Below, piece after piece: positions 3,704-63,768 of a DNA stretch of 64,000 nucleotides. The position numbers were made by a program, and so were the translations under genes. This DNA is from Candidatus Poribacteria bacterium (lineage in GTDB: Bacteria > Poribacteria > WGA-4E > JAJDTR01). Below the pieces are notes generated by a model, which did not search any database, was not told the DNA's origin, and worked only from the letters and a program-made list of their open reading frames with translations. The stretch's first letter is position 1; each line of letters starts with the position of its first letter. The stretch covers positions 3,008,001-3,072,000 of the forward strand of contig CBDCTK010000002.1 in NCBI GenBank assembly GCA_965222225.1. The letters are read 5' to 3'.

Positions 3704-4140
3704 TCAGCATCAGTGCGATTGTATGGCGATCTCGTGGCTTGAGTGCACCAGATTGGTCAAGGCTGGTGTTTGTATTGCCCTGCTTTGTGCAAAAGGCGGG
3801 ATTGTTGTTCAGATGTAGTGTAGGGTATCAAGCGAGTGAATAGATCAAGGGAACGATCAACTGAGTGGACAACGAAGGCGATAGAAGATCCCATAGTGAC
3901 CGCGATAGTAAATCCCGTGCGATAGGAATTTCGCTTCTTGCAGGGTGGCTTGATCCCAACCTACGGGCTATCGCGCTCCTTATTCAGTCGCTTGATCGGT
4001 TTCGGGAAGGGTTGAATCTTATTGATTGTCGTTGGAATCGGATTCAAAATATGATACGATGGCTTTATGTTTGCTGCGGGTGCATCAAGGTGGCGGCGAT
4101 GCCATAGTTCGGCAGGCTAAACGACATGAGGAGGGTTAAC

Positions 4141-4950
4141 ATGAGTGAACATCTTATCTCATCAAAGGAGATGGCGCAGTTTGTGGCTTCCGGCTACCTG
4201 AAGTTCGAGGAGATGGTGCCGAAAGATTTGTCCGACGCATGCCTTGAGGACATGAAAAACCACCGCGGTTATCTCGAGGTTGGTACCCCGTTCGAGGAGA
4301 CTTGGCCCAAGGGCACGCCGCTCGGCGATGTGTTCCGTTTGCCGCAGGTCAAAGGGCTGATCCATTCGTTGGTCGGTCCGAATCCGGTCTATGATCATCA
4401 CGCGGTGCATCTGCAGCGGGCGAACAGTATGAAGGGACCGGACACGCACCAGGACTCGGTCATCGACTTTCGCGAGAACTATTTCGACATCCAGTTGTCG
4501 TTCTTCGCGCACGACACGCCCGACGAGATGGGCGGTACGTTCCTGATTCCGGGATCGCATTTCCGAAATGTTCGCACGGGGGAGATTCGCGGCTACCATC
4601 AGATCTCCGGCAAAATCTGGGCGACGTGCCCGGCGGGGACGATGTATGTCTGGAACACGCGAGTCTGGCACGGCGGGCGCAGCAACTATACCGATAAAGA
4701 TCGCTACATGTACAAGCTGCGGCTCAACCCGTCGCAACCTCAGGTGCGCAATTTCGATACATCGGATATCGACGACCCGAAGATAGGAAGCATTCTTTCG
4801 AAGGGGCACGGCTGGGAAGGCAACGACATGCGGTATGAGTTGATGAAGCGCGTCCAGCTGTGGCGGTATGTTTCTGATCAGCCGGAGTACGATATCGGCG
4901 AGCGTTTCATGCGCAGGATTGAGTACCAGCCGCAAAGGATGTCGGCTTAA
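4141..4950 (+). CDS. Phytanoyl-CoA dioxygenase (PhyH) family Fe/2OG oxygenase
   Basis: HQD motif, GGTFLIPGSH, distal WHG..R..N; GAGGAGG RBS before ATG 4141. Confidence 0.9.
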   Translation: MSEHLISSKEMAQFVASGYLKFEEMVPKDLSDACLEDMKNHRGYLEVGTPFEETWPKGTPLGDVFRLPQVKGLIHSLVGPNPVYDHHAVHLQRANSMKGPDTHQDSVIDFRENYFDIQLSFFAHDTPDEMGGTFLIPGSHFRNVRTGEIRGYHQISGKIWATCPAGTMYVWNTRVWHGGRSNYTDKDRYMYKLRLNPSQPQVRNFDTSDIDDPKIGSILSKGHGWEGNDMRYELMKRVQLWRYVSDQPEYDIGERFMRRIEYQPQRMSA

Positions 4951-5230
4951 ATCGAGAGAAGATAAGAAAATCGGCGATTTGATGATTGGAGATTATGGGC
5001 GATGAAGTGTTGGGGTTCGCTTGAATTGCGGCGTTTTCGGGCAGAATGGAACATCGGACATTTTCTTGCCGTGCGTGAATTCTCTTGGACTTCCGCTCAA
5101 CCCAACCTCTACGGTCTGACATATTCAAAGGCTGGTGGGCAGTGCCCACCCTACAGGGAGAGGATTAGTGCAAAAAGGCGAAGTGGTGATTTGATGATTG
5201 GAGATTCTGCCAACCTCGTGCCTAGAGATC

Positions 5231-7762
5231 CTATTTGTTGACGAGCATTCTGCGGGTGGTGGTGAAATCGTCTGCGGTGAGGGTGCAAAAGTAGATGCCG
5301 GTGGCGACGGGTTCGCCGTATTGATTGCGCCCGTCCCAATACGCTGCACGGCCTCGGCTCTGATATAGGCCTGCGGGCTGGTAGCCAATCTCCAGTGCTT
5401 GCACCGTCCCTCCGTGCACGTCATGAATCGTCAAGGTGACATCCGCCGGCACCTGCAACTGATAGGGTATCCATGTCTCCGGATTGAACGGATTGGGGTA
5501 ATTTGGCAACAGGGCTGTCTCGGTCGGAATGTATGTCTGCCGCGTCAGCGCCGTCAACAGTCGTTCAAGCGTAATGATTCCTCGCTGCACGGTTGGATCT
5601 GCCGTCTCCAGTTGCTTAGCGTCATTCAGCCACTTCTTCACATCCTCGGCCGTGAGGGCTCCACGTCCACCCGCGTGGCTGGAAGGGGCGGCGGCGTCTC
5701 CCAACGCATCGGCGACCAGTTCCAAATCCTTGAGGTTTGCAACCCCATCTCCGTTGACATCCGCACCATCTTGCCTCAATTTCCCGAAATGCGAGGCGAC
5801 CAACACCAAGTCCAGGATGTTCGTGATTCCATCGCGGTTGACATCGGTCACACCGAATTCACCTGGGTTTGTGTAAGGAGTCGTGTCCCAAAACAGGATT
5901 GTTCCATCCAAACTTCCGCTGGCAAGCCCAATTCCATCCGGGTGAAACGCTACACTCGTAACCTCAGACGTATGACCCTTGAACGTACCCAGCAGATCGC
6001 CCGTAGCAGCATCCCACAGGCGGACAGTATCATCACTCCCTCCACTTGCCAGCGTCACCCCATCCGGACTGAAGGAGACGCTCTCGATCCAATGCGTATG
6101 TCCCTTAAGCGTCCGTACTAGCACATCTCTATTCGCATCCCACAGACGAACCGTACGGTCACGACTCCCGCTGGCAAGCTTCAAGCCATCCGGGCTAAAT
6201 GCGAGACTAGTGATGTTGGATGAGTGTCCTTGAAGCGTGCGCCTGCGCGCACCCGTGGCGGCATCCCATAGATGGATGGCACCGTCGTAGCTCCCACTGG
6301 CTAGCGTCACGCCATCGGGCGAATAGGTCACGGACAATACCACGCCCGTGTTTTCGTCAATTAATCGCACTTGCTCGCCGGTGGCTACATCCCACAAACG
6401 AATGGTACTGTCCCAACCTGCACTGGCGAGGGTCAAACCGTTCGGACTGTACGCCACATCGGTAACCCAAAGCGAGTGTCCCCCAAGCGTTCGTCGCCCG
6501 CCGGTGAGGGCATCCCAGAGATGGAGGCTGCCGTCTCTACTCCCACTGGCAAACGTCAAGCCGTCGGGACTGTACGCCACGCTAATGACTTCCTTCTCAC
6601 CCGCTTGAAGCGTTCGCACCTGCGCACCCGCAGTCGTATCCCATAGACGGATAGCGCTGTCCCAACTCCCGCTGACGAGCCTTTTCCCGTCCGGACTGTA
6701 CGCAATGCTATTGATCCAGGAGGAATGCGCGTTGATTGAGCGCGCCAACTCACCCGTAGTTATATCCCATAGGCGGATGGAATGGTCCCAACTCACACTA
6801 ACAAGCGTTTTTCCGTCCGGGCTGACCGCAATCTTCGGGTTAAACGAAAGATCTCTCCTGCTGGTAGAGGTAACCTCATCAAACGTTAACTTTTGGCCAC
6901 CGGTATCCGGATCCCACAGCCTGACCGTACCGAACCAGCCGCCACTCGCAAGTGTCTTTCCGTCCGGGCTGTATGTAAGGCTATTGACCCAATCCCTGGC
7001 CACATCAAGCGTGCGGATGTGTTCGCCGGTGAGGGCATCCCACAAGCGGATGCCACCATCCCAGCTCCCGCTGGCAAGCGTTTTCCCGTCCGGGCTGTAC
7101 GTTACGCTGCTTACCTCCCACGTATGCCCCTCCTCAAGCGTCTGTACCTGTGCACCCGTATCCACGTCCCACAGACGTACCTCGCTCGAACTCCCGCTTG
7201 CAAGCGTGTCTCCGTCGGGGCTAAACGCGACGGTAGGGACCATCCATGTATGGCCTTCAAGCGCCCGTATGTGCTCACCAGTAACCACATTCCACAGGTG
7301 AAGGTTGCCACTCCAACCTCCGGCTGCAAGGGTTAAACCATCCGGGCTGAACGCCAAGCTAAAGGCGGGACTCGTATGCCCCTCAAGTGTCCTCTTGTGC
7401 GCTCCCGTCCCCACATCCCACAGATGGATGGTTTTGTCCCCACTCCCAGTCGCAAGCGTCAAGCCATTCGGACTGAATTCCATACTGTCGATCCAAGCCG
7501 TGTGTCCGTTGAGCAGGGCACTCTCTTGAAAATTCGTTGTGTCATAGAGCCAAATCCCCAGGCTACTCGCAACCGCGAGGCGCGCGCCATCCGGGGAGTA
7601 GGCGACGGGACCGGTCAGTGAGCCTTTACCTAGCCGCATAGAGGCGCCTTCGGGCAACTTCCGTTGCGGGGAGTCTTGGGCGACGGCGTTGAGTGAAAAT
7701 AGGATGGAAAGGAATAGAAGGCAGGGCTTGAACGAAAGCGTGTTTTTCACCAACATCGTCAT
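5231..7762 (-). CDS. Secreted WD40-repeat protein with dockerin-like EF-hands and C-terminal FlgD-Ig/T9SS-like domain
   Basis: Signal peptide; about 14 FSPDG..LASGS.D..LWD repeats; DVNRDGITNILDL and DVNGDGVANLKDL; NYPNPFNPETWIPYQL tail. Confidence 0.92.
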   Translation of the reverse strand: MTMLVKNTLSFKPCLLFLSILFSLNAVAQDSPQRKLPEGASMRLGKGSLTGPVAYSPDGARLAVASSLGIWLYDTTNFQESALLNGHTAWIDSMEFSPNGLTLATGSGDKTIHLWDVGTGAHKRTLEGHTSPAFSLAFSPDGLTLAAGGWSGNLHLWNVVTGEHIRALEGHTWMVPTVAFSPDGDTLASGSSSEVRLWDVDTGAQVQTLEEGHTWEVSSVTYSPDGKTLASGSWDGGIRLWDALTGEHIRTLDVARDWVNSLTYSPDGKTLASGGWFGTVRLWDPDTGGQKLTFDEVTSTSRRDLSFNPKIAVSPDGKTLVSVSWDHSIRLWDITTGELARSINAHSSWINSIAYSPDGKRLVSGSWDSAIRLWDTTAGAQVRTLQAGEKEVISVAYSPDGLTFASGSRDGSLHLWDALTGGRRTLGGHSLWVTDVAYSPNGLTLASAGWDSTIRLWDVATGEQVRLIDENTGVVLSVTYSPDGVTLASGSYDGAIHLWDAATGARRRTLQGHSSNITSLAFSPDGLKLASGSRDRTVRLWDANRDVLVRTLKGHTHWIESVSFSPDGVTLASGGSDDTVRLWDAATGDLLGTFKGHTSEVTSVAFHPDGIGLASGSLDGTILFWDTTPYTNPGEFGVTDVNRDGITNILDLVLVASHFGKLRQDGADVNGDGVANLKDLELVADALGDAAAPSSHAGGRGALTAEDVKKWLNDAKQLETADPTVQRGIITLERLLTALTRQTYIPTETALLPNYPNPFNPETWIPYQLQVPADVTLTIHDVHGGTVQALEIGYQPAGLYQSRGRAAYWDGRNQYGEPVATGIYFCTLTADDFTTTRRMLVNK

Positions 7763-8236
7763 TCTCCTTTAGGAAGCGTCGCTCCAACAAGTGAATTTGT
7801 CAGTTTCGAGCGGCAAAACGAATGATTTTGAACGTCTTTTCAAGTAGTTTTGCGCCCAATTTTGATGGATGAAAGTGTATGCTTCGACCAAAGTGCAACA
7901 TCTGTGCCAATGGGAAACCTGATTCATACTGCTCTCGGTGATGGGTTTTTTGGTTCAGGTGCACGGAATAGGTCAAGGAATTGGGTTCGCGTTGCCCTGC
8001 ACGGTGCAGAAGTAGGGGGATTTGGGCGCGATCCCGGAGCGTTGCTTGCGGCAGAGGTCGCGACCGGGAGATCGCTCCTACAAAAATCAACACCTCAGGA
8101 TTCACTATCGCCTTCCTTATCCAGTCAGTTGATCATTCGCTATTCGCTCAGAATTCGCTCAGATGATCCTTATTCAGTCGCTTGAGAAGATCCCTATCGC
8201 GCTCCTTATTCAGTCGCTTGATCGCTTTGATTGCCG

Positions 8237-9482: not shown

Positions 9483-9678
9483 GACAGTGGATAGTGGATC
9501 TCTATGGGAACTCTATCAAGATCTTCTATCGCCTTCGTTAGCCACTCAGTTGATCATTCGCTATTCGGTCCATTGATCGATAGAGATCCCTTCAACTGAC
9601 TGAATGGTTTTCTCGCTAAGAATGTATGATATAGGACTTACGCATGTTGGACTCTCAAAGCGAATACGAGTTCCGGAA

Positions 9679-9710
9679 GAAACCGAGTTTTCAAGAAAAA
9701 ACTCGGTTTC
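9679..9710. repeat. GAAACCGAGTTTT...AAAAACTCGGTTTC palindrome family
   Basis: Copies at 9679-9710, 15328-15359, 42438-42469; degenerate copies near 41457, 47570, 57967. Confidence 0.8.
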
Positions 9711-12118: not shown

Positions 12119-12276
12119 TGGTTATTGTCTGAATGAGATCTCTATCAAGATCTTCTATCGCCTTCGTTAGCCACTCAGTTGATCGGATTTTAGGGATCTC
12201 TACGCACTCGCTATTCACTCGCTTGAGGGGATTACTATCGCACTCCTTATCCAGTCGCTTGATCCCAATCTACGGG

Positions 12277-14232: not shown

Positions 14233-15437
14233 TGGGTTTGTCCTTCGTTTTTGTGCGGGTTACGGCATAAGGAGTATGCCTACTACATTCAGTCGGTTGA
14301 GGGATTTACTATCGCACTCGCTATCCGCTCGCTCGATCCTTTTTGTTTCATGTGCCAAGCAACGGCGAAGATACCGCTAGGCTTGCCGATTTTACCACTG
14401 TTTTCGGTTCCTTGATATCTGATGTACATTTTTGTTTTGAAGCCCAGCCCCACAGATTGAGAAGAAGTGGTTCCGGAGCAAGCCGAGTCTTCCTTACGCC
14501 GAGGGTTCAGTTTGGTTGTTTCTTTTGGTAGACAGTATAGCACGCTCGGGCACAAGGAGCAAGAACGGGAGGAAGCAGTGGTCAGTGACCAGTGACTGGC
14601 GATCAGTGAAGAAGGTGGGCTGATGGGAATGGAGGAAGGATAGAAGGGCGGAAGAGTGGAAGGATGGAAGAAAATCAGTGGTCAGTGGCGAGAGGGGAAG
14701 TGCGGGTAACTGTCTGAATGGGATCTCTATCGGGATTTGCTATCGCGCTCATTATTCATTCGCTTGATCGGATTAAGGGATTTCTATCGCACTATAGTCA
14801 TTTGCATTTATATTTACACCTACTGCGGTATACAGGCAAGTGAACGACTAGTCGGACGCGAGATGAAAAGAACGGAAATGTTCGATTTACGACTGAAGAT
14901 TGTTACAACAAACCCACTGTAGGAGATCAAGCGAACGAATAGTGAGTGCGATAGAGATCTTCTCGAGGTCGCGACTTCTTATCGCGAGCAGAGCTCGCTC
15001 CTACAGGAGACGCACAATAAAGGGATTTCTATCGCACTCGTTATCCACTCGTTTGAGGGATTTCTATCGCGTTCGCTATTCACTCACTTGATCGCTCATT
15101 ATTCAGTCGCTTGATCGGTCGCATGGTAGTTCAATCCAATCTACGTATCATCAGCCAGTGTTTGCGATTCGAGGTGCTTTGTGATACAATTTCGCATTGC
15201 GGAAAGCGGGTAGTCGGGAGTTGGAGAGGATTCCTATGGGAGCTCTACCCAAACATTATCCATTCGCTTGATTGTCATCGCACCGTACAGACTCCTACAA
15301 CACTCAACTATTGGCGTTTGGAAGGGAGAAACCGAGTTTTGAGGAAAAAACTCGGTTTCGTCGAGATCGGGAAAGCGAAATTAGTCCCGAATCTGTCCAC
15401 AAGAAAACACTTCCGCGGTTCACAATACCATGTTTTT

Positions 15438-20772: not shown

Positions 20773-21101
20773 GCATGTGTCTCACAGCGTTAACCAAGCG
20801 CCTTATCGCTATAGTCAATTCAACTGAAAATTATACATATAGGATTTACGCAGTTTGGTTTAGAGTGGCGATCAAGGGAGCGAATAGCGAAGGTGATAGT
20901 CTTTGCGTTCGCTGGCAACCGTGCGAAGGAAGCGGCATAGCTATAGCGCGCCCTATCCGATCGCGTGATCGTTCCATATCGCGGAGTAGAGCGAAAGCAT
21001 GCTTGAATTTGGATGGAATGGACGGAAAATCGAGGTGTTTTTCTATTGTCCCTTATCATCGCTAGTCTACGCGCGCCCCTGCATTTCAAGTAATTGAGCG
21101 T

Positions 21102-23203: not shown

Positions 23204-23652
23204 CTATCTATTACGCGCCAAAATTTCAGCTCATCATATGTGGTTGTCCCAATCCCTAGGTTGCCCTGACTCGGCACCATCCCACAACTTGCATCAAACT
23301 GGCCCCCGATATGTCATGGTGTTTCGCGGTTTCGTATCCAACAAGTGAACGCCAATGTTCATTTTTTGTGCAAGAGGGGCAGTGGCAGTTCTCGCAAACT
23401 GTGCCTGTGTCCTACAATTCTGGTAGAGCACCAGTGCTGTCCCACCCTCCTGTTGGTAATACCATTTCTTAAAATGATAGGGCATCAATGATGTGATTTT
23501 CGGAGAAAAGCTATCGCCCCGGGATTTCTATCGCACTCGTTATCCACTCGTTTGATCGCTATTCGCTCAGTTGATTCCACGCTGGGGCTTTGGTGTAGGG
23601 TGGCTTGGTGTTGCTATACACCTGTCCCGCCGTTCTGGTACTCTCAAAGGCT

Positions 23653-27997: not shown

Positions 27998-28369
27998 CCC
28001 AATCTCCTATACGCAATTGCGACGTAGGACGTAGCTAGTGACTTTACTGTGTTTCTCATGTATTTATTATCGCCCGCACTATATTTTCGAAGAGTTCATT
28101 TCCAATCTACAAGGGCGAGCCAAGTCTACAAGACATCAATGAAGCGCACGATGCCTAAAACCACTTCTCTTTGGTTCCGTGGAGGATACACTATAACACT
28201 TCTACACCAGATTTTCAACGATTAGCCTTTCTGTAGTTCGGTTTGTCACCAAACTATTCGATTATCAAATCAACGGCGATTCAAGGGAGATTAAGCGAGT
28301 GGATATGAGTAGGATTTTCTATCGCCTTCGCTACCAAGATTTCTATGGCGTGGGATTCACTATCGCACT

Positions 28370-28408
28370 GGGATTTCTATCGCCCTCGTTATTCGCTCGG
28401 TTGATCCC
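28370..28408 (+). repeat. Representative of an abundant 37-39 bp element GGGATYTCTATCGCNCTCNTTATYCRNTCGNTTGATCCC
   Basis: Full copies e.g. 12228-12266, 23521-23557, 28370-28408, 47761-47800, 55819-55855; dozens of nested or partial copies. Confidence 0.9.
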
Positions 28409-40184: not shown

Positions 40185-40519
40185 AGGTCAGGTAGAATCC
40201 GAGATCTTTGAATCGAAGGTGGAATCGCCTCGTTGGATCGGTAGTTGATGAGTATCTTCGTGTAAACATTCCGTCTTATGGCGGAAGGGTTTTTGCCATC
40301 TGTTATAGAATTTGCGAAGCGTCAAGGGGTTGCGATGCGGAGGAAATCACTATCAGGATCTACTATCGCACTCCTTGTCCAGTCGTTTGATCGCTCCTTA
40401 TTCAGTCGCTTGATCCTACAGCGAGCACCAAGAGGTCGCGATTCGGAGATCGCTCCTACCGGCAACTTCTTTAGAGAATTGCTATCGCGTTCCCTAACCG
40501 GTCACTTGATTGTTTAACT

Positions 40520-41230: not shown

Positions 41231-41532
41231 ATGCCCGAGGATTTGCGCGGGATTTTCTACCGCCTTGGAATCTCTATCGCACTCATTATTCATTCGCTTG
41301 ATCGCTGTCCGAGAGCGGGAGTTAAAGATAGAGCTCTCTGATAGCGAAGGCGATAGCAAATCCTATGTGTTATCCGCTCGCTTGATCGCCGTTGGCGCTT
41401 TCAAAGGCTGGTGCGCAGTGCGCACCCTGCAGAAAACCACAGAATTGTGCAAGAAATAAACTGAGTTTTGAAGAAAAAAAGATCCCTATCGCAGTCATTT
41501 TCCATTCCTTTGATCGGTTTCGGGAGGATAGT

Positions 41533-42493: not shown

Positions 42494-43924
42494 ATGATAA
42501 TTCATAACGGCGGTCCCAATCTGAGTTTGGGGGAGGTCGTTCTCTTTCCTTTCGATGACTACAGCCTCCCATTTCAGAGGGGGGTTCGATTGCAGTTAAT
42601 TCCGAATAAAGGCGACCAAATCGTCGTGCCGTTTGGGCCTCCCGGCGCACCGGATAGTACAGGCATGAACTACTACGGCGCGGTCTGCAGAGTCGGCGAT
42701 GAACTGTGGATGTGGTATCTGGGGGGCAGCCAGGTGTGTTTTGCAAAGAGCACGGACGGCTACAACTGGAAACGTCCGTGCCTCAGGCTAATTTCTCATA
42801 ATGGCAGCACGCAGAACAATCTGGTGGATTTGGGCGGCGCAGCGTACAAGGTGGTGGCGTGTGTCGTGCTTTATGAACCCGAGGATCCCGATCCTAATCG
42901 CCGATTCAAGATGGTTTACGAGACGCATCGCAGAAACCCGTCACACGGCGGTCGCGCGGAGTTCAACGTTGCCGTTAGCGCGGATGGCATCCGCTGGACG
43001 GAACGCCCGGTCAATCCCCAGTATGTGTCCTGTGAAATGAGTGGTTTCATCAAGTTCAACGGGTGTTATTATGTCTCGGCGCAGAGCGGCGGCGGACATT
43101 TTCCGCGGCCTGAACGAAAGCTGGAAACTTTCGTTTCTTACGATTTCGAGAACTGGGTTGAAGCGGATTGCATGGGATTGCTGCGTGGCAACGTCCCGCC
43201 TCGACCGATGGTTGACGGGTCGCACGCCGGGGAGCAGATTCACCTCGGCGCGGGATTGTGGAACCGGGAGAACGTGATTATCGGCATCTACGGTCAATGG
43301 CACGGGCATCCGACGAACGATAGGAGTTTAATCTCCATGGATCTCGGGCTGGTGGTTAGCAACGACGCGCTGCACTACCGGGAACCGATACCCGATTTTC
43401 GCATCGTTCCGGCGTCGGAAAATAGCGCTGATCGGCTGTTCGGCGCTTTGATGCAGGGACAGGGATTCGAGAACATCAACGGCGAAACGCTGTTCTGGTA
43501 CGCGCCTTGGGGCGGTTGCAACGGCATTCGGGTGGCGAAGTGGGAACAGGATCGGCTGGGTTACTTTGAAGCCTTCTTGGGCATGAAGATGAATTCGCTG
43601 CAGGAATCGCACTTCGTCTCGGCACCGATAGATTTGGAGGGTAAACCGGCGCAGGTGGAGATTAACGTTGATGGTCTATCTGAGTACGCCGAGATTAGCG
43701 TGGAGATTCTGACGGAGCGATTCGAGGCGATTCCGGGATTTGGGCGAGACGACTGCACGGGGCCAAAGGAATCCGGGCTGCGGCAGTTGGTGACATGGGG
43801 GAACCGCGAAAGCCTTGAGAATATTGACGGCAAAGTGCGCGTGCGGGTGAATTTCGGCGGGATTCGTCCCGAGGATGTGAAGATTCACGCGATATATGTG
43901 AGTGAGCAAGGAAACGGACAGTGA
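42494..43924 (+). CDS. Beta-propeller glycoside-hydrolase-like protein
   Basis: STDGYNW, SADGIRW, SYDFENW Asp-box-like motifs, DRLGY, C-terminal sandwich. Confidence 0.7.
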   Translation: MIIHNGGPNLSLGEVVLFPFDDYSLPFQRGVRLQLIPNKGDQIVVPFGPPGAPDSTGMNYYGAVCRVGDELWMWYLGGSQVCFAKSTDGYNWKRPCLRLISHNGSTQNNLVDLGGAAYKVVACVVLYEPEDPDPNRRFKMVYETHRRNPSHGGRAEFNVAVSADGIRWTERPVNPQYVSCEMSGFIKFNGCYYVSAQSGGGHFPRPERKLETFVSYDFENWVEADCMGLLRGNVPPRPMVDGSHAGEQIHLGAGLWNRENVIIGIYGQWHGHPTNDRSLISMDLGLVVSNDALHYREPIPDFRIVPASENSADRLFGALMQGQGFENINGETLFWYAPWGGCNGIRVAKWEQDRLGYFEAFLGMKMNSLQESHFVSAPIDLEGKPAQVEINVDGLSEYAEISVEILTERFEAIPGFGRDDCTGPKESGLRQLVTWGNRESLENIDGKVRVRVNFGGIRPEDVKIHAIYVSEQGNGQ

Positions 43925-43957
43925 GCGCGATAGTAGATTGGAGAAGTTTAACTCAAG

Positions 43958-46120: not shown

Positions 46121-47095
46121 ATGAGTCTAACGAAAGAGGAAGTCCATCAGTTTGAACGGGAAGGGTGGGTTATGAAGCGCAAGGTGTTTTCTCGCGGGGA
46201 TATGGAGCCCATCCAGAAAGGACTGACCGAGATTGTGCACCGAGAAGCCTTGGCTTTGAAAGAGCAGGGGATGCTGGATGAGATTTACGAAGATAAACCC
46301 TTCGAAACCCGCCTAGCCTATATTCGCTACGCCAACCCCGAGGCGTGTCGGGTCATTTATCGAAGCATCATGGGAAAGGCTGGCGGCGGCTTCAGCGGAG
46401 AGGGGATGTTCCACTTCGTGAGGCATCGACCGCTGCTTTCCTGTATCGAAAGCCTTCTGGGACCCGATATCATCGGCGCCTCAATCTATCGCGTCCGTCC
46501 AAAGTTGCCGGAGTGGGCGCACGGCGAGGTGCCTTGGCATCAGGATTCGGGTTACTTCATGCCGCATTGCGACAAATTCCTCATATTGACGTGTTGGATC
46601 CCTCTGGTGGATGCCACGCTCGAAAACGGCTGTCTTTTTGTGCTGCCCGGATTGCATACACGGGGAGTGACACGCCATTATACGGGTGGACACTCGGGCT
46701 ATCTCGAGGTGCCGGGAGATTTACTCGGTCAGGTTAAACCGACATCGGTTGAAATGGAGGCGGGGAGCGTGCTTTTCTTGACGAACCTGACTCCGCACGC
46801 CTCCTTCGAGAACCACAGCGGCGTCGTGCGATGGAGTTTGGATCTCAGGTATCAAAGTATGGAGGCGCCGAACAATGTGGATGAGGAGCCGGAGTCGTAT
46901 ACACTCGAGCGAGAGCCGGTGACGATGGCTTGCGCTCCCACCGAAGCGGATTTTGTAGTCCGAGACACGAAGAACCCGCACCGCGAGGTGGCTACGCCGG
47001 AGCAGTTTCACCAGATTCGAGAGAAGTACGAAAATGCGCGTCCCTATCACCCGGGCCGTGGGTGGACGCCAATGTCGGAGCGGTCAAGCGAGTGA
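46121..47095 (+). CDS. PhyH-family dioxygenase (tandem copy 2)
   Basis: Same length and motifs as 45024-45998. Confidence 0.92.
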   Translation: MSLTKEEVHQFEREGWVMKRKVFSRGDMEPIQKGLTEIVHREALALKEQGMLDEIYEDKPFETRLAYIRYANPEACRVIYRSIMGKAGGGFSGEGMFHFVRHRPLLSCIESLLGPDIIGASIYRVRPKLPEWAHGEVPWHQDSGYFMPHCDKFLILTCWIPLVDATLENGCLFVLPGLHTRGVTRHYTGGHSGYLEVPGDLLGQVKPTSVEMEAGSVLFLTNLTPHASFENHSGVVRWSLDLRYQSMEAPNNVDEEPESYTLEREPVTMACAPTEADFVVRDTKNPHREVATPEQFHQIREKYENARPYHPGRGWTPMSERSSE

Positions 47096-47819
47096 ATAGC
47101 GAGCAATCTCGTTCCTAAATAAAGCAGTCAGTTGGGTTTCGCTACGTTCTTGTGCACAAGCGGGACATTGGAAAACAGGATTCTCTTGAAAATTTGATGA
47201 GATTTGGATGACGACGCTCAACCTAACCTACGAGGCCGACCACTTGTGTGGAGCGGAGTAAGAAGCCTTGTCTCCGCGCAAGGTCGGTGGGGCAAAGGGA
47301 CCTCTATCGCACAGGATTTACTATCGCCCTCCTTATCCAGTCGGTTGATCCTACAAGAAATGGTGGGCAGTGCCCACCCTACAAATGTACTAGCCACGGC
47401 CCCTGTCGCGAGTAAAACTCGCCCCTACAGAAGACACGCGGTCTGGATTTGCCAATCCAGACCGATCAGTTAGGGAGATAGCCGAGCAGAGAAGCGCAGA
47501 GCGAATCCCGATGAATCGGGGCTTACAAAGGCTGGTGCGCAGTGCGCACCCTACGGGATTGGGCAAGAAAGAAACGGAGTTTTCAAGAAAACAAGGATCT
47601 CTATCGTATTCGCCATTCGCTCATTTGATCCTATCTGTTCGGTTGATTGTTCAACCGAACCTACGGACTGTCGCGACCGGGAGATCGCTCCTACAATGAC
47701 CCCATCTGCTGATGGACCTCTATCGCACTTGTTATTCACTCGTTTGAAGGGATTTCTATCGGGATTTACTATCGCCTTCGCTATTCGCTCGGTCGATCCC
47801 ACCCTACAAAAAAGCTTGA

Positions 47820-49367: not shown

Positions 49368-49610
49368 GGTTTTTTACTTTCAGTGCTCGCACGTCGTGCA
49401 TGTGTCATTAAAGCGGGTAGTCGTGCCGCGCTTTGGAGCCTCATTGAATAACAGTTGGCAAAGTCATTCTCGGGCATTTGCGATGAGCAGGTTTCTATCG
49501 CGGTCACTATCCGTTCCCTTGATCGTTATCCACTCGCTTGATTCTACTGAATCGCGACCGGGAGGTCGCTCCTACCAAGCCCATCATTAAGGGCGCAACT
49601 TAGCCGCGTT

Positions 49611-50592: not shown

Positions 50593-51534
50593 GGCGGGGG
50601 TAGGATGGAAAGGAGTGAACAGTGATCTGTGGTCAGTGAGGAAAGGTCGCAAATTGTCTGAATGAGATTTCTATAGGACTCACTGCGGAATCTACTATCG
50701 CCCTCACTATTCGTTCAGCTGATCCCTTCCGGGGCATCTGGAGGCTGGTGCGCAGTGCGCACCCTACAAGATGACAATTCAGAATTGTACGTTTGTACAA
50801 AGTCGAGCTAAGTGTTTGCCTCGTCTCTGTCAGCTATCTGAATCTTAATTCGTTGGGGTTTGGGCTCCTCGGGATTTTCAATAAGTAACTGTATTCCATT
50901 TTTTTCATTTGAACTTAAGAGCTGTTCAAAGTTCATTATGCGAATGCCTAAATCTCTTAATTGACTACGAGTCTTGAGAATATCTCCATCCTCTGTCACA
51001 AATATATCTCTGCCTGCCAAGTAATGAGCGTGGATGTGGTCGAAATCTAGATATTGTGGCAGATTCTTCCCGGTCTTTTTAAAACTGTCAATAATGGACT
51101 CAGCCACGATAAGAAACTCGGCACTCCCCGGTTTGTCAAACTCTGGATTAAGGAGGAATCGATTGCTTTTGCTGTCGAAGCAATTTCGCATAATCGAAGG
51201 GATCTTTCTTATAAAGCTATCTGTGAGAAACCGCTCATCTGATGGGTTGAGTGACAAATCATCTCGAATTCGTTGCGTAACTGCTAAATCCACGGGGCAT
51301 TCTCCCGAAGTTTCCAGGGGTCTAATATTTTTCCACGCTTCATATTGATAACCTCATTGGTATCTAATGTTATTGATGGCAGATGATAAATGCAATCTAC
51401 TTTCACTACATCTGCCTCCGCATGATACATCAACACATTTAGTGTACTGGAAGTGGGGAAGACTAGTGTTAAACGAACCTCGGGCAAATCAGGTTGTGCC
51501 AGTTGAGCAGATTGTTCGCCTATAGTTCGTATAT

Positions 51535-55301: not shown

Positions 55302-55942
55302 TTCGGGTACCCTTTCACTCGACGGGGTTTGAACGACATTGATTTCAGCGCATGTTTAGTATTAGCCGGGCAATTTGTCGACGCAACATAGTATACCAAG
55401 AGATTCTGATTTATGGAAAAAGATAATGATGCGGTATAGGACTTGCGCTGTTTGGTTTGTAGGAGCGCGTTTTGCTCGCGATTTCAGAACTTTGTCGCGA
55501 CCGGGAGATTGCTCCTACAAGAACCTTTATCTGTGGGGACTCCATCTTCGACCTGATGAGTGCAGTTTTTCTGTAGGGTGCGATCAACCGACTGATTAAG
55601 GAGGGCGATAGCACCCTAAAGAACTGTTGATGGTCTGGAGTTGGTAATCCAGACCGAGTAGGAAAGGATACGACAAGCAGATGGATTGTTGGGTTTCACT
55701 TGAGTTTCGGCTTTTTGGGGAAGAATGAAACGTCGAATGCCTCCTTTCGGCGTGCATGATTTCTCATGGATTTCCGTTCAACCCAACCTACAGAATTTGT
55801 TTCGTCGCGATTCGGTGAGGGATCTCTATCGCACTCGTTATCCACTCGCTTGATCGCTCCTACCATCGCCATCAGGGATTTCTGTCGCATTCATCATTCA
55901 TTCGCTTGATCCCTGTTCTCACCCTACAAAACTCCCGTAGCC

Positions 55943-56658: not shown

Positions 56659-57711
56659 CTATTCCAATGACTGGAGCAATCGAAGGGCCTTTTGAATACG
56701 GTCTCGCAGTACCCGGTTCCCGGCGCGCTTCGCGAATCTCAAAGCAGTTCGGAGATCTCGCTTCGCGGCTGAGACGCGAAATAGAACTGCCTTGGAAATC
56801 CCTCTCTGAAGATATGCTTCGGCGTAATCGGGCTTTAGTCGGATGGCAATGTCATAATCAGAGATGGCGGCAAAGTGTTGGCCTAATTCAGCCCTACATA
56901 TCCCTCGCAAAACATAAGTTGTCGCAGCATTGGGGTCAAGGTCAATGGCGTCTGTGAACTCCCGAATCGCCCCCGCATAATCCCCTGACATTCTCTTTTC
57001 ATAACCTCTTATCATACAGCCAATGTAAGAGACAGCCGTGTTTCCATGCGATAACGGCTTTGCCTTTCCCGATTGACCTAGCAACGTTTTGAGCGCATTC
57101 GATGGCACCGCGAAGTTCAGAAGTATACCGTCGAGCGGGTGGTACATTGACTACGACACTCCAATCACCCTTCCCTTGCGGTTGAGCACAGGGCCTCCAC
57201 TGCTACCGCGGGAAATCGGAGCAGTCATCTGAAGACGTTCTTTTTTCGTGGTGCCATCGCGTCGACCGCTGATAATACCGTACGAGAATGTGCCTTCAAA
57301 GCCCAGCGGGTTGCCCGCCACGTAAACCGTTTCTCCGATTTGAACTGCGTCACTGTCGCCGAGGGGAAGCGGCGCGACACCTTTCACCGTCACCTTGAGG
57401 AGTGCGAGGTCGTTCGACTCATCTCGTGCCGTCACGCCTTCGATAGGGTATGCGAGTTTTGTATTGACTAACTTTGCACTGCCCTTAGCTGCACCTTCAA
57501 TGACGTGGAAATTCGTAGCGATGAGGTTCTCTCGGACGAAAAATCCACTACCGTGTCCGAGTGTGACGCCGTTTTCGTCCTGCACCTCCAATGAGACAGT
57601 CGCGGCTAACGCTTTTTTGGCAAGCTGGGGGACAGACTGGGCTGAAGCGTAATTAAGGGCGGAGAGCAGAAAGATGAGCAAAAGTGTGATTAGCTTGGTT
57701 TGATGGTTCAT
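56659..57711 (-). pseudogene. Secreted trypsin-like serine protease plus TPR protein, split by an in-frame TAG at 57151-57153
   Basis: GSGF, TNFHV, DLALL, GSSGGP; VIGVS*SMYHPLDGILLNFAVPSN continues in frame into TPR repeats. Confidence 0.85.
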
Positions 57712-57813
57712 CTAACACGCTCCTTGCGTCAGAATGTGTGGGGTTGTTGAGGGAACAGAATAACCTGGCTTCTGTTGTTTTTCGAGTTCGCGGTGTGTTT
57801 CTCTAACCATTTC

Positions 57814-57856
57814 ATTTTACTACTTTTCGCCGTTTTTGTCTATTGGTTTCGTTTGG
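57814..57856 (-). promoter_or_regulatory. sigma-70-type promoter cassette (copy 2)
   Basis: Minus strand TAGACA-17 bp-TAAAAT; near-identical to 50550-50592. Confidence 0.65.
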
Positions 57857-58132
57857 CATCAAGGTGGTTGTTTAAACCGGCGATTTGGGGAGCTCTATCG
57901 CACTGAGGTTTTTATTGCGCTCACTACTCATTCGCTTGATCCCACTCCGGGGCTTTGCACGCGCGATAGAGTTCCTTTTCAAAAAATAACTCGGTTTTGA
58001 CTCGGGAGGGTTCGCAAAGGCTGGTGCGCAGTGCGCACCCTACAACACTGGTTAATTGGAGGAGGGTCAAGATTTGGCAGTCCAGACCGAGCGGGGAAAG
58101 AAGGGTGCGCCGAATTTTTGGTTTGAAGCGAA

Positions 58133-58161
58133 TTGACATCAATTTGTGTCTATGATAAAAT
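58133..58161 (+). promoter_or_regulatory. sigma-70-type promoter
   Basis: TTGACA-17 bp-TAAAAT upstream of the 58252 gene cluster. Confidence 0.7.
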
Positions 58162-58251
58162 CACCGGGCTTGTGGCGACATGACGGATTAACCAAATCGG
58201 GGAAAATCCCCATCATCACTGACTTAAAATACCCTCCACGGAGAAATCGGA

Positions 58252-59646: not shown

Positions 59647-59753
59647 GTGCGTGGGAGACGGAATCTTTTGGATGAAGTGTTGGGTTTCACGGTGTCCAAC
59701 CCAACCTACGCACTGTTATTTAAGCGAAATGGTAACATCGGGAGCAACAACTG

Positions 59754-61418
59754 ATGACGGATAGCCCCGAAAGGAAAAGCCTGACGGAAGCGCTTGATCT
59801 TCAGCGGAAGACAGAGGACATCGTGTCGGGGAAGCGACGGGTTGACGAGCGGTATCCCTACATACCTCCGGATTACAACATCCCCTTCCTTCACATCGGG
59901 ACGGAGAAGCAGTTGTTTCTCGATAATTTCATCCTTGATCGCTTTGAAAGGGTGGAGCGCGTCTTTCCCAAACCGGATCGGCCAGAGCAGCCGATTATCG
60001 ATCCGATGGAATTGCCGTGGGAACGCAATGCCCCCAAGGGGTACTTCAGCCACTGGGCTTTCGTTGTCGCGGTGCTGCACGATCCGGATGACGGGAAGTT
60101 CAAGCTGTGGTACATCAGGGATTTTGAAGAGGTGTACGACAAGCGGATGTTGTGCTACGCCGAAACGACCGCCCCGCTGCATTGGGAAAAGCCGTTGAGC
60201 GAGAAATGCGTCCCCTTTAACGAGCACAAAGCCACCAACATCGTGCAACTTAACTCCGGCGAGCACATCGCGTTGGCGCTGAATTGTGATCAGAGCGACA
60301 AGTCGCGCAAGTATCTCATGAACCTGAGAAACAGCTTTCTCGTCTCGCCCGACGGTTTGCAGTGGAGGTCGGTCAGCGAGGGCACGCCTTATCGGAAACA
60401 CCACTATCAGCGCCCCATCTGGGATGAGTCGATTCAGAAGTGGATCTCTTACAGCCAGTATTCGCACCACTGGAATATTTTGCACCGCAAGCGCCAGATC
60501 GGACGGCAGGAAAGCGCGGACTTCATTAACTGGTCGCCCAAGCGGGTGGTGGTCTCCGTGGATTTCGACCCGAACCTCACGCCCAACCTCGAATTTCACG
60601 ATATGTCCGTTCGTAAAATCGGCGGTCAATACATCGGGATCGCGACGGAGTTCTTGGCGGAAGGCATCCCCAGCGTCCACGATTTTTCGGGACGGCATAT
60701 TCCGGAGTATGACGGCGATTGCACCTACAACCATTGGGAACAAGCTTACGCTCACTTCGGGCTGTACGCCAGCCGTGACGGGATTCATTGGCGGCGGGTG
60801 GGCGATCCGGGGCCGTGGGCTGCGCATGGGGCGCCCGGTCACTATGATTACGGCTTTTTTGCGGACAGCGTGGCGGGTGAGTTGCTACACGATGGCAAGA
60901 CGTATGTCATCCATGATACGCGCCCGCAGAAACAGCGGCTATCGAAGAGAAAACCTAACGCACTGAAGACGGCAGAATTCCTGCAGCACGAACGGAATCA
61001 AGCGGCGTTGGTCGACGCCTTGGGCACCTACCCGCGGCTGCGCTCGAATGCTATAACCGCGCTCATCTTGCGGGAGGACGGTTGGGCGGAACTCAAGCCA
61101 ACCTATGAACAGGGGAGCGTTTTCACACGGCAGTTTGTCTTTGAAGGCGACGCGCTCAAGGTCAATGCCGAGGCATATGGCGGATACCTGAAGGTTGACG
61201 CGCTCGACCCGCAATTCAAGCCGTACGAAGGTTTTTCGGCGGCGGAGTGTGATGCGGTTTGCTCGGATAATCCCAAGCAAATTTGGCACACGGTACGCTG
61301 GCGCGGAAATCCGGATGTTCGCGCACTGTGGAACAAACCGGTGCGACTGCGATTTCACCTGCATCAGGCGAGTCTTTACGCTTTCCAGTTCGAGGAGACC
61401 GCCACAGTAAAAAGGTAA
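59754..61418 (+). CDS. Beta-propeller glycoside-hydrolase-like protein
   Basis: KQLFLD, SPDGLQW, SADFINW, SRDGIHW, LREDGW. Confidence 0.72.
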   Translation: MTDSPERKSLTEALDLQRKTEDIVSGKRRVDERYPYIPPDYNIPFLHIGTEKQLFLDNFILDRFERVERVFPKPDRPEQPIIDPMELPWERNAPKGYFSHWAFVVAVLHDPDDGKFKLWYIRDFEEVYDKRMLCYAETTAPLHWEKPLSEKCVPFNEHKATNIVQLNSGEHIALALNCDQSDKSRKYLMNLRNSFLVSPDGLQWRSVSEGTPYRKHHYQRPIWDESIQKWISYSQYSHHWNILHRKRQIGRQESADFINWSPKRVVVSVDFDPNLTPNLEFHDMSVRKIGGQYIGIATEFLAEGIPSVHDFSGRHIPEYDGDCTYNHWEQAYAHFGLYASRDGIHWRRVGDPGPWAAHGAPGHYDYGFFADSVAGELLHDGKTYVIHDTRPQKQRLSKRKPNALKTAEFLQHERNQAALVDALGTYPRLRSNAITALILREDGWAELKPTYEQGSVFTRQFVFEGDALKVNAEAYGGYLKVDALDPQFKPYEGFSAAECDAVCSDNPKQIWHTVRWRGNPDVRALWNKPVRLRFHLHQASLYAFQFEETATVKR

Positions 61419-62338: not shown

Positions 62339-62539
62339 GATTAATAGCGTCAACCAAGTTTTTCCAAGGCGGGGCAAGGGGACTTCTATCGCACGCGCTA
62401 TGCGCTTGCTTGATCCCCGCCTACCGGCTTTGGGTAATGGTTGCTATCGGTCTATTCATAGAAGTATAATTGCAAAAAACATTTTACGCAATACTGTTCA
62501 AACGAAATGGCATAACAACAAGAAGAGAGGGATTACAGT

Positions 62540-63661
62540 ATGAAGTTTCAGGTTGGGGTGATTGGCGCGACCGGGTTCATCGGGTCGGCGTACAGACAGG
62601 AGATACGCGAAGCAAAACAGGACGCGACAATCGTCGCGCTGTGCGCTCGAAACCGTGAGCGGCTGGAGGCGGCAGCAGAGGAGGATAGTTGCGATTTTAT
62701 CACGGATGATTGGCGTCAGGTCGTTGATCATCCGGATGTCAATTTCGTCATCGTGGCGACTCCGGACGCGCTGCACTATGACGCGGTGATGGCGAGCGCA
62801 AAGAACGGGAAGCACATGTTCTGCGACAAGCCGATAGGCATGAACGTAACCGAGGCGTACGAGATGCGGCAGGCGTACCGCGAGGCGGGATTGTCCCATT
62901 TCGTGCCGTTCTGGGCGCGGTGTGAGCCGCTGTTCCTACGAGGCAAGGAGATTGTCGATGCGGGAACGTTGGGCGACATCCGAGCGATTATCTACCGCTG
63001 GCAGAACCCGCGTCCGGCGGCGATGCCGTTCACGTGGCGGGACGATGCCACGCTGTCGGCGGCGGGGAGCATCGCGGATGTCGGATCGCACGCCTACGAC
63101 GCGGTGCGCTGGCTCACGGGCACGGAGGCGAAGCGCGTACTGGCTCATGCGGATACCATCACGCCTCCCAAGCCGGACTTGGGTACCGTCTACCTCAACG
63201 ATGCCATTGAATGGGGCGGATCGCACACGAAGGCGGACAGCGAGAAACAGCGCAAGGGGACAGCGTTCGACTATGCCGCCATCGCGTGGGAGTTCCAGAG
63301 CGGCGCTGTCGGCTCTATCGTGCTCTCTCACGCTCCGATCTTGCGCAAGGGACTCGCGCCCGAGGTGGAACTTCACGGCACGGATGCATCATTGGCGATT
63401 GACCGGGTGCATAGCAGGGTTTCGGTGCTGCACTCTGGAGAGGATGTCCCTGAAGTTGAGGAGATTCATCCCTCGAGTCCGGGCAATCGGTTTGAGAACT
63501 TTGTGTTCCCATCGTTGGAGCGGGAGCTGGCGGGCGAGGCGTCTAATCACCCGAGTTTGAATGACGGGTGGCGGGTGCAGATTTTCACGCATTCCGCGGT
63601 GCTTTCGGCACGTCAGGGGGTGTGGGTCGAGTTGGCGGATCAGGATGCGGAGGCAAAGTAA
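62540..63661 (+). CDS. Gfo/Idh/MocA oxidoreductase
   Basis: GATGFIG Rossmann motif, ATPD..H, CDKP, GSIADVGSH. Confidence 0.92.
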   Translation: MKFQVGVIGATGFIGSAYRQEIREAKQDATIVALCARNRERLEAAAEEDSCDFITDDWRQVVDHPDVNFVIVATPDALHYDAVMASAKNGKHMFCDKPIGMNVTEAYEMRQAYREAGLSHFVPFWARCEPLFLRGKEIVDAGTLGDIRAIIYRWQNPRPAAMPFTWRDDATLSAAGSIADVGSHAYDAVRWLTGTEAKRVLAHADTITPPKPDLGTVYLNDAIEWGGSHTKADSEKQRKGTAFDYAAIAWEFQSGAVGSIVLSHAPILRKGLAPEVELHGTDASLAIDRVHSRVSVLHSGEDVPEVEEIHPSSPGNRFENFVFPSLERELAGEASNHPSLNDGWRVQIFTHSAVLSARQGVWVELADQDAEAK

Positions 63662-63768
63662 ATTGCGCTACCACAATCCTGCTGTAGGGTGCTTTCAAAG
63701 GCCGGTGGGATCCCTATCAGGATTTTCTATTGTCTTTTCACAATTTAACAGAAATAGGAGAACCTTTC

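Follow-up and report, generated by a model that had tools for sequence, protein, structure and literature searches.

What is the short, strand-biased repeat that recurs between the genes of a 64,000-nt stretch of a sponge symbiont's genome, and does it move? The stretch, hereafter the window, spans positions 3008001-3072000 of contig C2 in the assembly of a Candidatus Poribacteria bacterium (G000; 5.70 Mb in two contigs, C1 and C2, 50% G+C). An earlier reading of its letters, which we call the original prediction, had described a very abundant repeat there and proposed that it might be a minimal mobile element. We followed this 39-nt element through the window, the genome and related genomes. 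We conclude, with a probability of roughly 0.78, that it is a very small, non-coding, non-autonomous mobile element, and one that is mobile now or was until recently. A trans-acting enzyme specific for structure, presumably a single-strand nuclease-ligase working at the fork, would recognise the element as a single strand and move it in that form during replication. Model positions 1-39 are numbered on the pyrimidine-rich strand (Y), on which the repeat was first written; R denotes the complementary, purine-rich strand.

A short unit with a covarying hairpin

The 5' half of the element, GGGATYTCTATCGC, matched the window 21 times with at most two mismatches, against 1.02 matches expected; none of 100 shuffles reached 21, and a repeat finder grouped 28 core copies. 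Genome-wide, a strict regular expression returned 300 copies, of which 296 were exactly 39 nt long, and an nhmmer profile built from 296 genome copies returned 1150 hits at E<0.01 (509 on the + and 638 on the - strand of C2, and 3 on C1). By crude open reading frame (ORF) calls, from which gene and intergenic status was taken throughout, the element accounts for 0.69% of C2 and 3.2% of non-ORF bases; of the 1147 C2 hits, 1096 fall between ORFs and the remaining 51 mostly touch ORF ends. Copies form 642 separate clusters across the genome, with a very uneven density of 0 to 74 per 100 kb. The window, counted at E<1, holds 42 hits (36 +, 6 -), or 33 (29 +, 4 -) at E<0.01. The repeat described at first is thus real, and it favours the + strand of the window whatever the orientation of the flanking genes. 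All 17 clusters listed earlier between 3826-4000 and 62380-62420 contain at least one hit, whereas the last, at ~63707, consists only of stacked 5' fragments without an nhmmer hit. The further claim that copies lie in almost every intergenic region was too strong, because they occupy only 16 of 26 gaps of at least 150 nt and 0 of 10 gaps of 40-149 nt.

On Y, the unit reads GGGATYT-CTATCGC-NN-TC-NN-TATYC-NN-TC-NN-TTGATC-(C/G)C. Its non-N letters are 93-100% conserved, even where the regular expression left them free, and non-stem positions are invariant in 291-296 of 296 copies while the stems vary. The length of 37-39 bp given in the original prediction suits these 39-nt copies, but not the unit that is inserted, which spans 35-36 nt (positions 1-36) and reads GGGATYT(N)CTATCGC-NNTCNN-TATYC-NNTCNN-TTGA(T). 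In other genomes the final two letters of the 39-mer are free to vary, and they therefore belong to the target. Of the inverted end of ~5 bp described at first, the last 2-3 nt are target sequence.

Nor is the interior non-palindromic, as had been stated, since it holds a covarying hairpin. Among 741 column pairs in the 296 G000 copies, mutual information was highest for 19:27, 16:30, 15:31 and 20:26, and these positions covary as Watson-Crick pairs around an invariant TC/TC. When 101 distinct copies from other Poribacteria genomes were aligned on the R strand, 98.2% of cells were paired in the structure ...(((..((..((.....))..))..)))........., with 155 double-change cells compared with 25.8 in shuffles (0 of 500 shuffles reached 155); slid controls paired in 12-50%. 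The R-strand fold is GATCAA-NNGANN-GRATA-NNGANN-GCGATAGARATCCC. From foot to loop, it consists of ATC/GAT, an AA/GC internal loop, two covarying pairs, tandem G.A/A.G mismatches (the invariant TC/TC of Y), two more covarying pairs and a GRATA loop. Wobble pairs are one-sided, with 58 G-U cells on R among the 101 copies and, on the Y strand of G000, 133 A:C pairs vs about 12 G:T. Because these exceptions to Watson-Crick pairing fall on one side, we place the functional fold on the purine-rich R strand.

For the inner hairpin, the mean energy calculated as RNA is -0.95 kcal/mol on the R strand and +2.8 kcal/mol on the Y strand; DNA parameters give a positive value. Such a barely stable hairpin means that thermodynamics neither supports nor excludes the fold, so that covariation carries the argument; the weak energy also speaks for a protein that recognises the hairpin, and not for unaided folding. 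Fully paired stems come in 34 different forms, and their outer and inner pairs are linked only in part (0.81 of about 2.6 bits), which points to an old family with many masters rather than a recent burst from a single source. Rfam at its gathering threshold matched only the signal recognition particle (SRP) RNA and four tRNAs in the whole window and nothing in the element; a search of 14200-15200 at E<=1 gave 0 matches.

Insertion sites, empty sites and nests

Relative to uninterrupted target repeats, a copy adds 34 to 36 nt without a target-site duplication, and the gains in coding sequence are 36 or 72 nt. The insertion point lies immediately 5' of a C, usually as N^TC (GA^TC, AA^TC, AC^TC). 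The two junctions differ in precision. At the 3' end the junction is exact, TTGAT|C (C occupies position 37 in 901 of 1003 copies, and positions 38-39 are free in other genomes). The 5' junction is sloppy: the 5' module measures 7 nt in 493 copies but 8 nt in 215, and 1-2 target nt are frequently lost. Most targets are themselves repeats: the loops and stems of repetitive extragenic palindrome (REP) hairpins tagged with GTAG/CTAC, such as GTCGCGATTCGGAGA^TCGCTCCTAC at window 55819; the TGTCTGAATCGGATTAA repeat; the repeat target TGTCTGAA^TCGGATTAA; and the element's own TC dinucleotides, namely those at positions 17-18 and 24-25 and in the terminal GATC of older copies. For insertions in xGA^TCGC, the site is ambiguous by 2 nt, a range that includes G^ATC. 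CTAC occurs within 18 nt downstream of 262 of the 1003 copies and upstream of 80, compared with 4.6% of random non-ORF positions; since it is mostly downstream, the R strand is co-oriented with the GTAG strand of the invaded REPs. REPs into which the same copy has been inserted are found at 9 or more loci. These targets substantiate the claims of the original prediction that the element favours other repeats, and that copies sit inside them, after TGTCTGAAT and just before the CTAC of REPs.

The comparison of empty with filled sites proposed at the outset could be made between species. Genes of congeners (relatives in the same genus, labelled G001, G002, G003, G005 and G009 where one must be named) are ~87-90% identical, but their spacers do not have the same repeat content. 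In 10 congeneric genomes the gidA-gidB spacer measures 88 to 839 nt, and it contains element copies in G000 alone; in 80-kb syntenic stretches of five relatives, copies lie at different places and in different orientations. Clean pairs of empty and filled sites were found as insertions in the loops of REP-like hairpins, and two further cases lie in coding sequence. A single codon site in a 530-aa ORF exists in three states: empty in G001, G003, G005 and G009, longer by a 36-nt copy in G002, and longer by 72 nt in G000, where that copy has a second one nested after its position 16 and the frame remains open. The 2418-aa TamB-like ORF of G000 has a 72-nt in-frame insertion that holds a full copy and is absent from all 5 relatives compared; one of these is G005, with flanks 98-99% identical to those of G000. 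The TamB-like insertion is a recent event.

The surroundings of the TamB-like gene (C2:2921090-2921490) are themselves unusual, in that G005 is 98-99% identical to G000 there and four other congeners 74-83%. This pattern suggests either recent exchange or very recent common ancestry of the segment.

Copies also interrupt each other, as the original prediction had noted. In an anchored junction table of nests, giving the end of the 5' fragment and the start of the 3' fragment, the outer halves met at 11|14 (29 times), 12|14 (13), 16|18 (22), 23|25 (16) and 17|20 (8), with only 2-4 of each cross-combination. The split arms of the outer copy were fully paired in 13 of 25, 3 of 11 and 7 of 18 nests, compared with shuffle means of 9.8, 0.9 and 3.5. 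A Viterbi jump-alignment of clusters to the 39-nt model gave 7083 noisy jumps and was kept only as a pointer. Identical composites, of an outer and a nested copy or of a REP and a copy, recur at loci with different flanks, so composites were copied as units. It is the empty and filled sites between species, together with nested copies whose split halves match, that bear out the mobility first proposed.

Orientation, distribution and the moving enzyme

Copies on C2 tended to follow the sign of the 50-kb GC skew (775 concordant, 372 discordant). In 100-kb bins, Spearman's rho was 0.56 with skew (p=1e-5) and 0.09 with gene strand. We counted 183 + and 272 - copies between two + genes and 147 + and 165 - copies between two - genes; when copies were split by context, the odds ratio was ~2.3 for skew and ~1.4 in favour of the R strand in mRNA sense. 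Within patches of skew, the local bias rose to 1:36, 1:34 and 45:7 (up to 95% within domains), and the frequency of same orientation fell from 0.95 within 200 nt to about 0.66 up to 30 kb and 0.5 beyond 300 kb (runs test, z=-8.5). The bias was present both in copies beside CTAC (180 vs 82) and in the remaining copies (487 vs 254). Genes lie preferentially on the G-rich strand (1226 vs 713), which identifies it as the leading strand; Y is thus on the G-rich, leading strand and R on the C-rich, lagging strand in about 67% of copies. A second species, G002, sampled in 64 stretches of 20 kb, reproduced the bias (184 vs 92; rho 0.43, p=0.007). The suggested tie to replication direction is therefore supported, as a correlation with GC skew in two genomes. 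REPs have the same polarity, with their CTAC strand on the G-rich strand (REP1, 114 vs 47; REP2, 46 vs 20), as do generic tagged hairpins in G000 (219 of 319, or 219 vs 100).

Two side observations concern this polarity. The GTAG/CTAC REP hairpins of G000, for example at window 47529-47556, 47669-47695 and 55493-55517, are polar, unlike the inverted doublets typical of REPINs (REP doublets forming hairpins). In addition, the GC skew of C2 in 100-kb bins switches sign at least 8 times, which implies many asymmetric inversions or an unusual replication layout.

As the original prediction had proposed, relatives were scanned as well as the genome, here with the core pattern at up to 1 mismatch (a reversed-pattern control gave 0 everywhere). 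All 8 of 8 genomes of the genus had 545-1216 hits each and the sister genus had 3; one genus of another family had about 200 in each of 4 of 4 genomes. The core pattern found none in three further genera (32 genomes, 45 genomes and 13 of 14 genomes) or in any other class sampled. When one genome per GTDB species was scanned, at least 114 loci were found, all from Candidatus Poribacteria among the matches listed, and searches of plasmids and viral contigs gave no element match. Because the element is patchy across genera, phylogenetic profiling of candidate enzymes is feasible.

Our best guess at the mover, put forward tentatively within the mobile-element account, is an HUH Y1 nuclease-ligase of the RAYT (REP-associated tyrosine transposase) or IS200-like kind. 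It leads the candidates because there is no target duplication, a hairpin is recognised, and co-orientation and polarity are common to the element and REPs. G000 carries 5 Y1_Tnp (HUH) matches, and Y1_Tnp occurs in 25 of 31 relatives, including genera without the element. A 157-aa IS200-like Y1 ORF of RAYT type lies 8 kb past the window end (C2:3080258-3080728, - strand), bracketed by inverted element copies at -165 and +441 to +556 nt and by REPs; a Y1 fragment is bracketed likewise. Element density around this gene is 52 per 100 kb, so that flanking copies are expected by chance. This RAYT-like protein was found in 76 of 121 genomes, in genera both with and without the element, a distribution that does not match that of the element.

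Inside the window are three transposase genes of the IS4/IS5-family DDE type, at 29785-30741, 32064-33117 and 51695-52492. The check for a transposase flanked by the element's own ends gave two DDE transposons with clear terminal inverted repeats of 22 and 28 nt, both unrelated to the element, and the statement that the window contains no cognate enzyme holds in this sense. The 22-nt insertion sequence (IS) end, ...GAGCCTGTTTGAAAAGT..., is also found next to REPs elsewhere in G000; these ends may represent derived MITEs (miniature transposable elements with inverted repeats). MITEs such as Correia/NEMIS and the cyanobacterial Nezha are at least 100 bp long, have terminal inverted repeats and target duplications, and derive from DDE transposons. 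The element resembles them in being non-autonomous, intergenic and multi-copy, but its 5-nt 'inverted ends' are partly target, it makes no duplication, and the IS4/IS5 ends in the window are unrelated to it.

Several findings weigh against the account given so far. The presence/absence comparisons are between species at ~88% identity, plus one 99%-identical locus, and not between strains. A few copies occupy the same site in two species (G001 20186, G002 53277), and therefore not all copies are young. The test of arm complementarity in nests is only weakly significant because one subfamily dominates. Stem sharing is 2-4 times commoner between copies 0.1-30 kb apart than between random pairs, and local spread may cause part of the regional orientation bias. 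The hairpin is weak in isolation, and its polarity is the reverse of the IS608 paradigm, the folding R strand being on the C-rich strand. Finally, no candidate enzyme (RAYT, the second Y1 protein or RVT_1) matches the distribution of the element. RAYT-like orthologues are 80-85% identical in element-free genera, and in the second genus that bears the element, 2 of the 4 genomes, with about 200 copies each, gave no RAYT-like match; the second Y1 protein occurs in only 2 of 7 congeners and 3 of 121 genomes, and RVT_1 in only 3 of 9 congeners and 8 of 31 relatives.

We next consider whether the element is an atypical REP, a member of a REP/RAYT system that is moved by one of the genome's RAYTs and partly hitch-hikes in GTAG-tagged REPs. 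We regard this as possible, if somewhat doubtful. REPs (PMC2817692, PMC3116915, PMC6006769) are 20-40 nt intergenic hairpins in hundreds of copies, and the element falls within this size range, is intergenic and has hundreds of copies; it likewise lacks MITE-type terminal inverted repeats and target duplications, in a genome with Y1 HUH genes. The downstream CTAC that aligns R with the GTAG strand, the skew polarity common to both, the recurrence of a REP with the same copy, and the inverted copies around the best RAYT-like gene and the Y1 fragment all fit, as does the presence of Y1_Tnp in all 13 element-bearing genomes searched and its absence from the sister genus with 3 copies. PMC6006769 also describes TnpA-Y1 classes with atypical, weak, GTAG-less hairpins. 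The same paper defines a REP by a GT[AG]G tetranucleotide 0-2 nt 5' of the hairpin foot and a basal stem of 7-20 fully paired nt, and the element departs from it on both counts. There is no GT[AG]G at its 5' foot: R reads GATCAA-hairpin-GCGATAGA, with ATAG 3' of the hairpin, and Y reads GGGATYTCTATCGC-hairpin-TTGATC. Its stem of 3 + 2 + 2 pairs is broken by AA/GC and GA/GA internal loops, leaving 2+2 pairs around mismatches. Copies are single, with 94.7% of pairs within 200 nt co-oriented, and do not form the inverted doublets of REPINs or BIMEs (bacterial interspersed mosaic elements). In addition, the distribution of RAYT-like genes does not follow the element, and the density of copies around the RAYT gene would by itself place some beside it.

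The IS200/IS605 family offers a related comparison, which we draw from PMC6006769. Hairpin recognition, insertion at a short target without duplication and a replication-linked strand bias are features of both. In IS200/IS605 elements, both ends carry a hairpin and the target is 4-5 nt long, whereas the Poribacteria element has one central hairpin and a target of ~2 nt. For IS608, PMC6006769 places the folding active strand on the lagging-strand template; the folding R strand of the element is on the C-rich strand (~67%), opposite to this rule.

A bolder form of the mobile-element account is that the element is a near-minimal replicator of an undescribed class. A 17-nt G.A-platform hairpin with ~18 flanking nt would then suffice in cis, and single-stranded DNA would be copied on the Okazaki side and ligated 5' of C; the enzyme would be something other than a classical RAYT or a reverse transcriptase. 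We consider this improbable as it stands. If it were true, REPs would follow the same polarity rule, and Poribacteria would provide a system for hairpin writing into the lagging strand.

By description only, the nearest kind of repeat known to us appears to be the small dispersed repeats (SDR1-8) of Nostoc punctiforme and its relatives. SDRs of Nostoc are reportedly 21-27 nt long; SDR4-6 are said to form hairpins with compensatory changes, and SDR1 and SDR4 reportedly occur inside other repeats and their own copies. RNA-mediated retro-mobility is said to have been proposed for the cyanobacterial SDRs, and we know of no enzyme ever tied to them. The element is like them in being tiny, non-coding, dispersed and clade-restricted, with a compensated hairpin, and in nesting in itself and in other repeats. 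It differs in the length of its unit (35-36 nt, or 39 nt as first written), which exceeds the SDR range; in its host, which is not a cyanobacterium; in its invariant tandem G.A; and in the GC-skew polarity that it has in common with REPs. The insertion site is a further likeness, since PMC4390886 reports SDR5 inserted at a GATC-centred word (HIP1), and the ambiguity at xGA^TCGC includes G^ATC. A literature search pairing Poribacteria with repeat terms found nothing relevant; as far as the literature searched reaches, an SDR- or REP-like miniature mobile hairpin has not been described in print for Poribacteria.

This likeness raises an RNA route, in which the R hairpin, with its GNRNA-like GRAUA loop and tandem G.A, would be read by a reverse transcriptase/integrase and the cDNA inserted. 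We judge this route unlikely. Several properties agree with it: G.U wobble is tolerated on R only (the 58 G-U cells and the large excess of A:C over G:T on Y), among 240 inner hairpins folded as RNA, the R-strand hairpin was most often the structure of minimum energy (150), the pairing of an exact with a sloppy junction is reminiscent of target-primed reverse transcription, and where the flanking genes are co-oriented, copies with R in mRNA sense are slightly in excess (419 vs 348). Yet all congeners have hundreds of copies (the 545-1216 above), while RVT_1 is confined to a minority of them and is weak in G000 (6e-6). Moreover, orientation tracks GC skew and not gene strand, no 5'-truncation gradient or A-tail was seen among copies, and G.T wobble is tolerated in single-stranded DNA too.

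The alternative named in the original prediction, a fixed protein-binding or small-RNA signal, was not supported. In its broader form, the repeat would be a host-selected signal, such as a replication-polar or nucleoid-protein site or an RNA motif, that spread secondarily, and this we think very unlikely. Its near-invariant non-stem positions beside variable stems, its polarity with the replication strand, as in other polar motifs, and its two GATC/GATY sites 31 nt apart, read from the sequence, would suit such a signal. Against this, copies do not keep their positions from one species to another, their orientation does not depend on gene strand, their density is very uneven (0 to 74 per 100 kb), most genera of the order lack the element, copies are nested, truncated and inserted in frame within genes, and no Rfam family matched.

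An origin without any mobility, by slippage, unequal recombination or segmental duplication between short repeats within the element (TATC/GATC, NNTCNN), is scarcely credible and largely refuted: the element does contain internal direct repeats (CTATCGC vs TTGATCGC), hairpin+TTGATC units of 23 nt do recur in tandem (an anchor spacing of 23 nt was seen 115 times), one copy was duplicated along with its gene (3968 vs 8194) and copies 0.1-30 kb apart are more alike than random ones, but copies lying within 100 nt of each other resemble one another no more than random pairs do (all eight variable stem letters agree in 3 of 249 such pairs, vs 0.018 expected), so that arrays are not tandem duplications and slippage is excluded as their source, and precise insertions occur in unrelated single-copy coding sequence and in many repeat families, across the 642 separate clusters. 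A CRISPR repeat (no regular spacing), an integron attC site (no cassette context, no R'/R'' boxes) and a DNA uptake sequence (which is a fixed word and so does not suit an element with a covarying structure) were also considered and dropped.

The element is among the smallest mobile DNA elements seen, with similar ones known from cyanobacteria. How the smallest bacterial repeats (REPs and SDRs) move is still unsettled, and the element makes the question testable through its four covarying pairs with the invariant G.A, its exact 3' junction, the empty/+36/+72 series at one coding site, its polarity in two species and its patchy occurrence across genera. On the practical side, it makes up about 3% of the non-coding DNA of these symbiont genomes, adds 12-24 in-frame residues to proteins and breaks short-read assemblies. 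In four public runs compared over window 40001-60000, where contigs are short and end in repeats and those of the RNA run may contain DNA, contig joints connect repeats that are kilobases apart.

Copies and neighbours along the window

Copies are given here in window coordinates, on the + strand unless stated, with model positions and the nhmmer E-value in brackets. The first lies on the - strand at 3854..3886 (positions 6-38; E=3.9e-05). A second, at 3968..3997 (8-37; E=1.5e-06), was duplicated with the neighbouring gene and is 97% identical to the copy at 8194-8228. Four paralogues of a PhyH-family dioxygenase are found in the window (4126-4950, 11318-12118, 45024-45998 and 46121-47095); two pairs of segments are 89% identical in DNA, and one duplication took an element copy along. 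A copy at 8105..8134 (8-37; E=4.1e-04) precedes a 3' fragment at 8167..8185 (17-35; E=0.99), which is cut at TTGA by the copy at 8189..8225 (3-39; E=2.0e-08), inserted in GA^TC of the preceding one; the empty form, TGA^TCGCTTTG, is present elsewhere in G000. Stacked 5' fragments lead into a copy at 9525..9555 (7-37; E=9.8e-04). The TGTCTGAAT...GGATT repeat harbours a copy at 12154..12184 (7-37; E=5.6e-04); then come a copy at 12193..12226 (1-35; E=4.3e-06), cut at TTGA by the next, and that next, full copy at 12228..12266 (E=1.1e-09), which continues into ...CTAC.

At 14309..14339, a copy has the 8-nt form of the 5' module (8-38; E=1.5e-06). A 13-nt 5' fragment, GGGATCTCTATCG, read from the sequence at 14720..14732, follows TGTCTGAAT and directly precedes the copy at 14740..14769 (8-37; E=1.5e-07), whose TTGA leads into TCGGATTAA, the remainder of the target repeat. 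Beyond it are an orphan 5' fragment at 14777..14793 (1-17; E=0.093) and a minority-orientation copy on the - strand at 14925..14959 (3-37; E=1.6e-10). The copy at 15022..15056 (1-35; E=1.4e-09) is cut at TTGA by a full copy inserted at its GA^TC, 15057..15095 (E=1.7e-10); an extra hairpin unit follows TTGATC at 15093..15116 (14-37; E=1.4e-03), and a weak 3' fragment lies at 15254..15272 (18-36; E=0.39).

Further along are a 3' part on the - strand at 20868..20892 (15-39; E=2.6e-03) and two full copies nested in older ones. The first nested copy, at 23521..23559 (E=1.7e-11), is followed by the 3' remainder of the interrupted outer copy at 23556..23575 (17-36; E=0.29); the second, at 28370..28408 (E=1.2e-10), is preceded by the 5' fragment of its outer copy at 28351..28369 (about positions 1-17; from repeat grouping). 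The copy in the gidA-gidB spacer, at 40363..40394 (8-39; E=2.9e-06), is absent in the 9 congeners compared; after it come an extra hairpin unit at 40392..40416 (14-38; E=4.2e-03), then CTAC, and a diverged copy at 40477..40510 (3-36; E=1.9e-04) that is spanned by contigs of all 4 public runs. A full copy at 41267..41305 (E=5.3e-11) is nested after a 5' fragment at 41249-41266, and is followed by a 3' fragment at 41369..41389 (19-39; E=0.063) and a copy at 41481..41516 (3-38; E=1.5e-06) that overlaps the start of a crude ORF call.

Two weak matches are on the - strand, a copy at a gene end at 43907..43933 (8-34; E=0.025) and a fragment at 47084..47103 (16-35; E=0.03). The 5' fragment GGGACCTCTATCGCAC, a pattern match at 47297..47312, stands before a copy at 47321..47351 (8-38; E=5.3e-06) that runs into CTAC. 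It is followed by a diverged copy at 47595..47631 (2-38; E=1.3e-06), one cut at TTGA at 47714..47747 (2-35; E=5.0e-06) and one at 47769..47800 (8-39; E=3.5e-05), then ACCCTAC. At 49492..49525 (5-38; E=1.1e-07) a copy meets a 3' fragment at 49523..49542 (17-36; E=0.098), then CTAC, and the copy at 50695..50726 (8-39; E=1.8e-04) lies downstream of TGTCTGAAT at ~50656.

Another minority-orientation copy is on the - strand at 55580..55611 (8-39; E=3.4e-05). The full copy at 55819..55857 (E=3.3e-12) is inserted at GA^TC inside the REP hairpin GTCGCGATTCGGxGA^TCGCTCCTAC, whose empty form was found among uninterrupted repeats of G000; another full copy lies at 55875..55913 (E=4.4e-08). The 5' fragment of an interrupted copy at 57888..57904 (1-17; E=0.46) is followed by the diverged copy nested after it, 57913..57943 (9-39; E=5.9e-04). 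The full copy at 62379..62417 (E=1.7e-06) lies inside a GGCGGGGCAAG...CCCCGCCTAC REP hairpin, to which empty REPs at 376-383 and 44862-44869 are related, and the stacked 5' fragments at 63701..63730 (GGGATCCCTATC, AGGATTTTCTATTG) were read from the sequence.

As for other features, SRP RNA, dnaX, ybaB, recR, mnmG (gidA) and rsmG (gidB) form one co-oriented block at 34872-41230, and the 100-kb bin around it has a GC skew of +0.057, the second-highest of the genome's bins. The four tRNAs are at 28561-29016. An 843-aa WD40-repeat protein (12 stretches scored) is encoded at 5231-7762, where the DNA repeats with a 126-nt period. Compared with the window, all four public runs have 12 extra nt, one more CACTA-type tandem unit, behind 40532. 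A different hairpin repeat, GAAACCGAGTTTT-loop-AAAACTCGGTTTC, is present at 9675-9710, 15324-15359 and 42434-42469; in each of the four public runs, summed contig depth is by far the highest in the bin containing the last of these, and the repeat is thus very abundant in those metagenomes.

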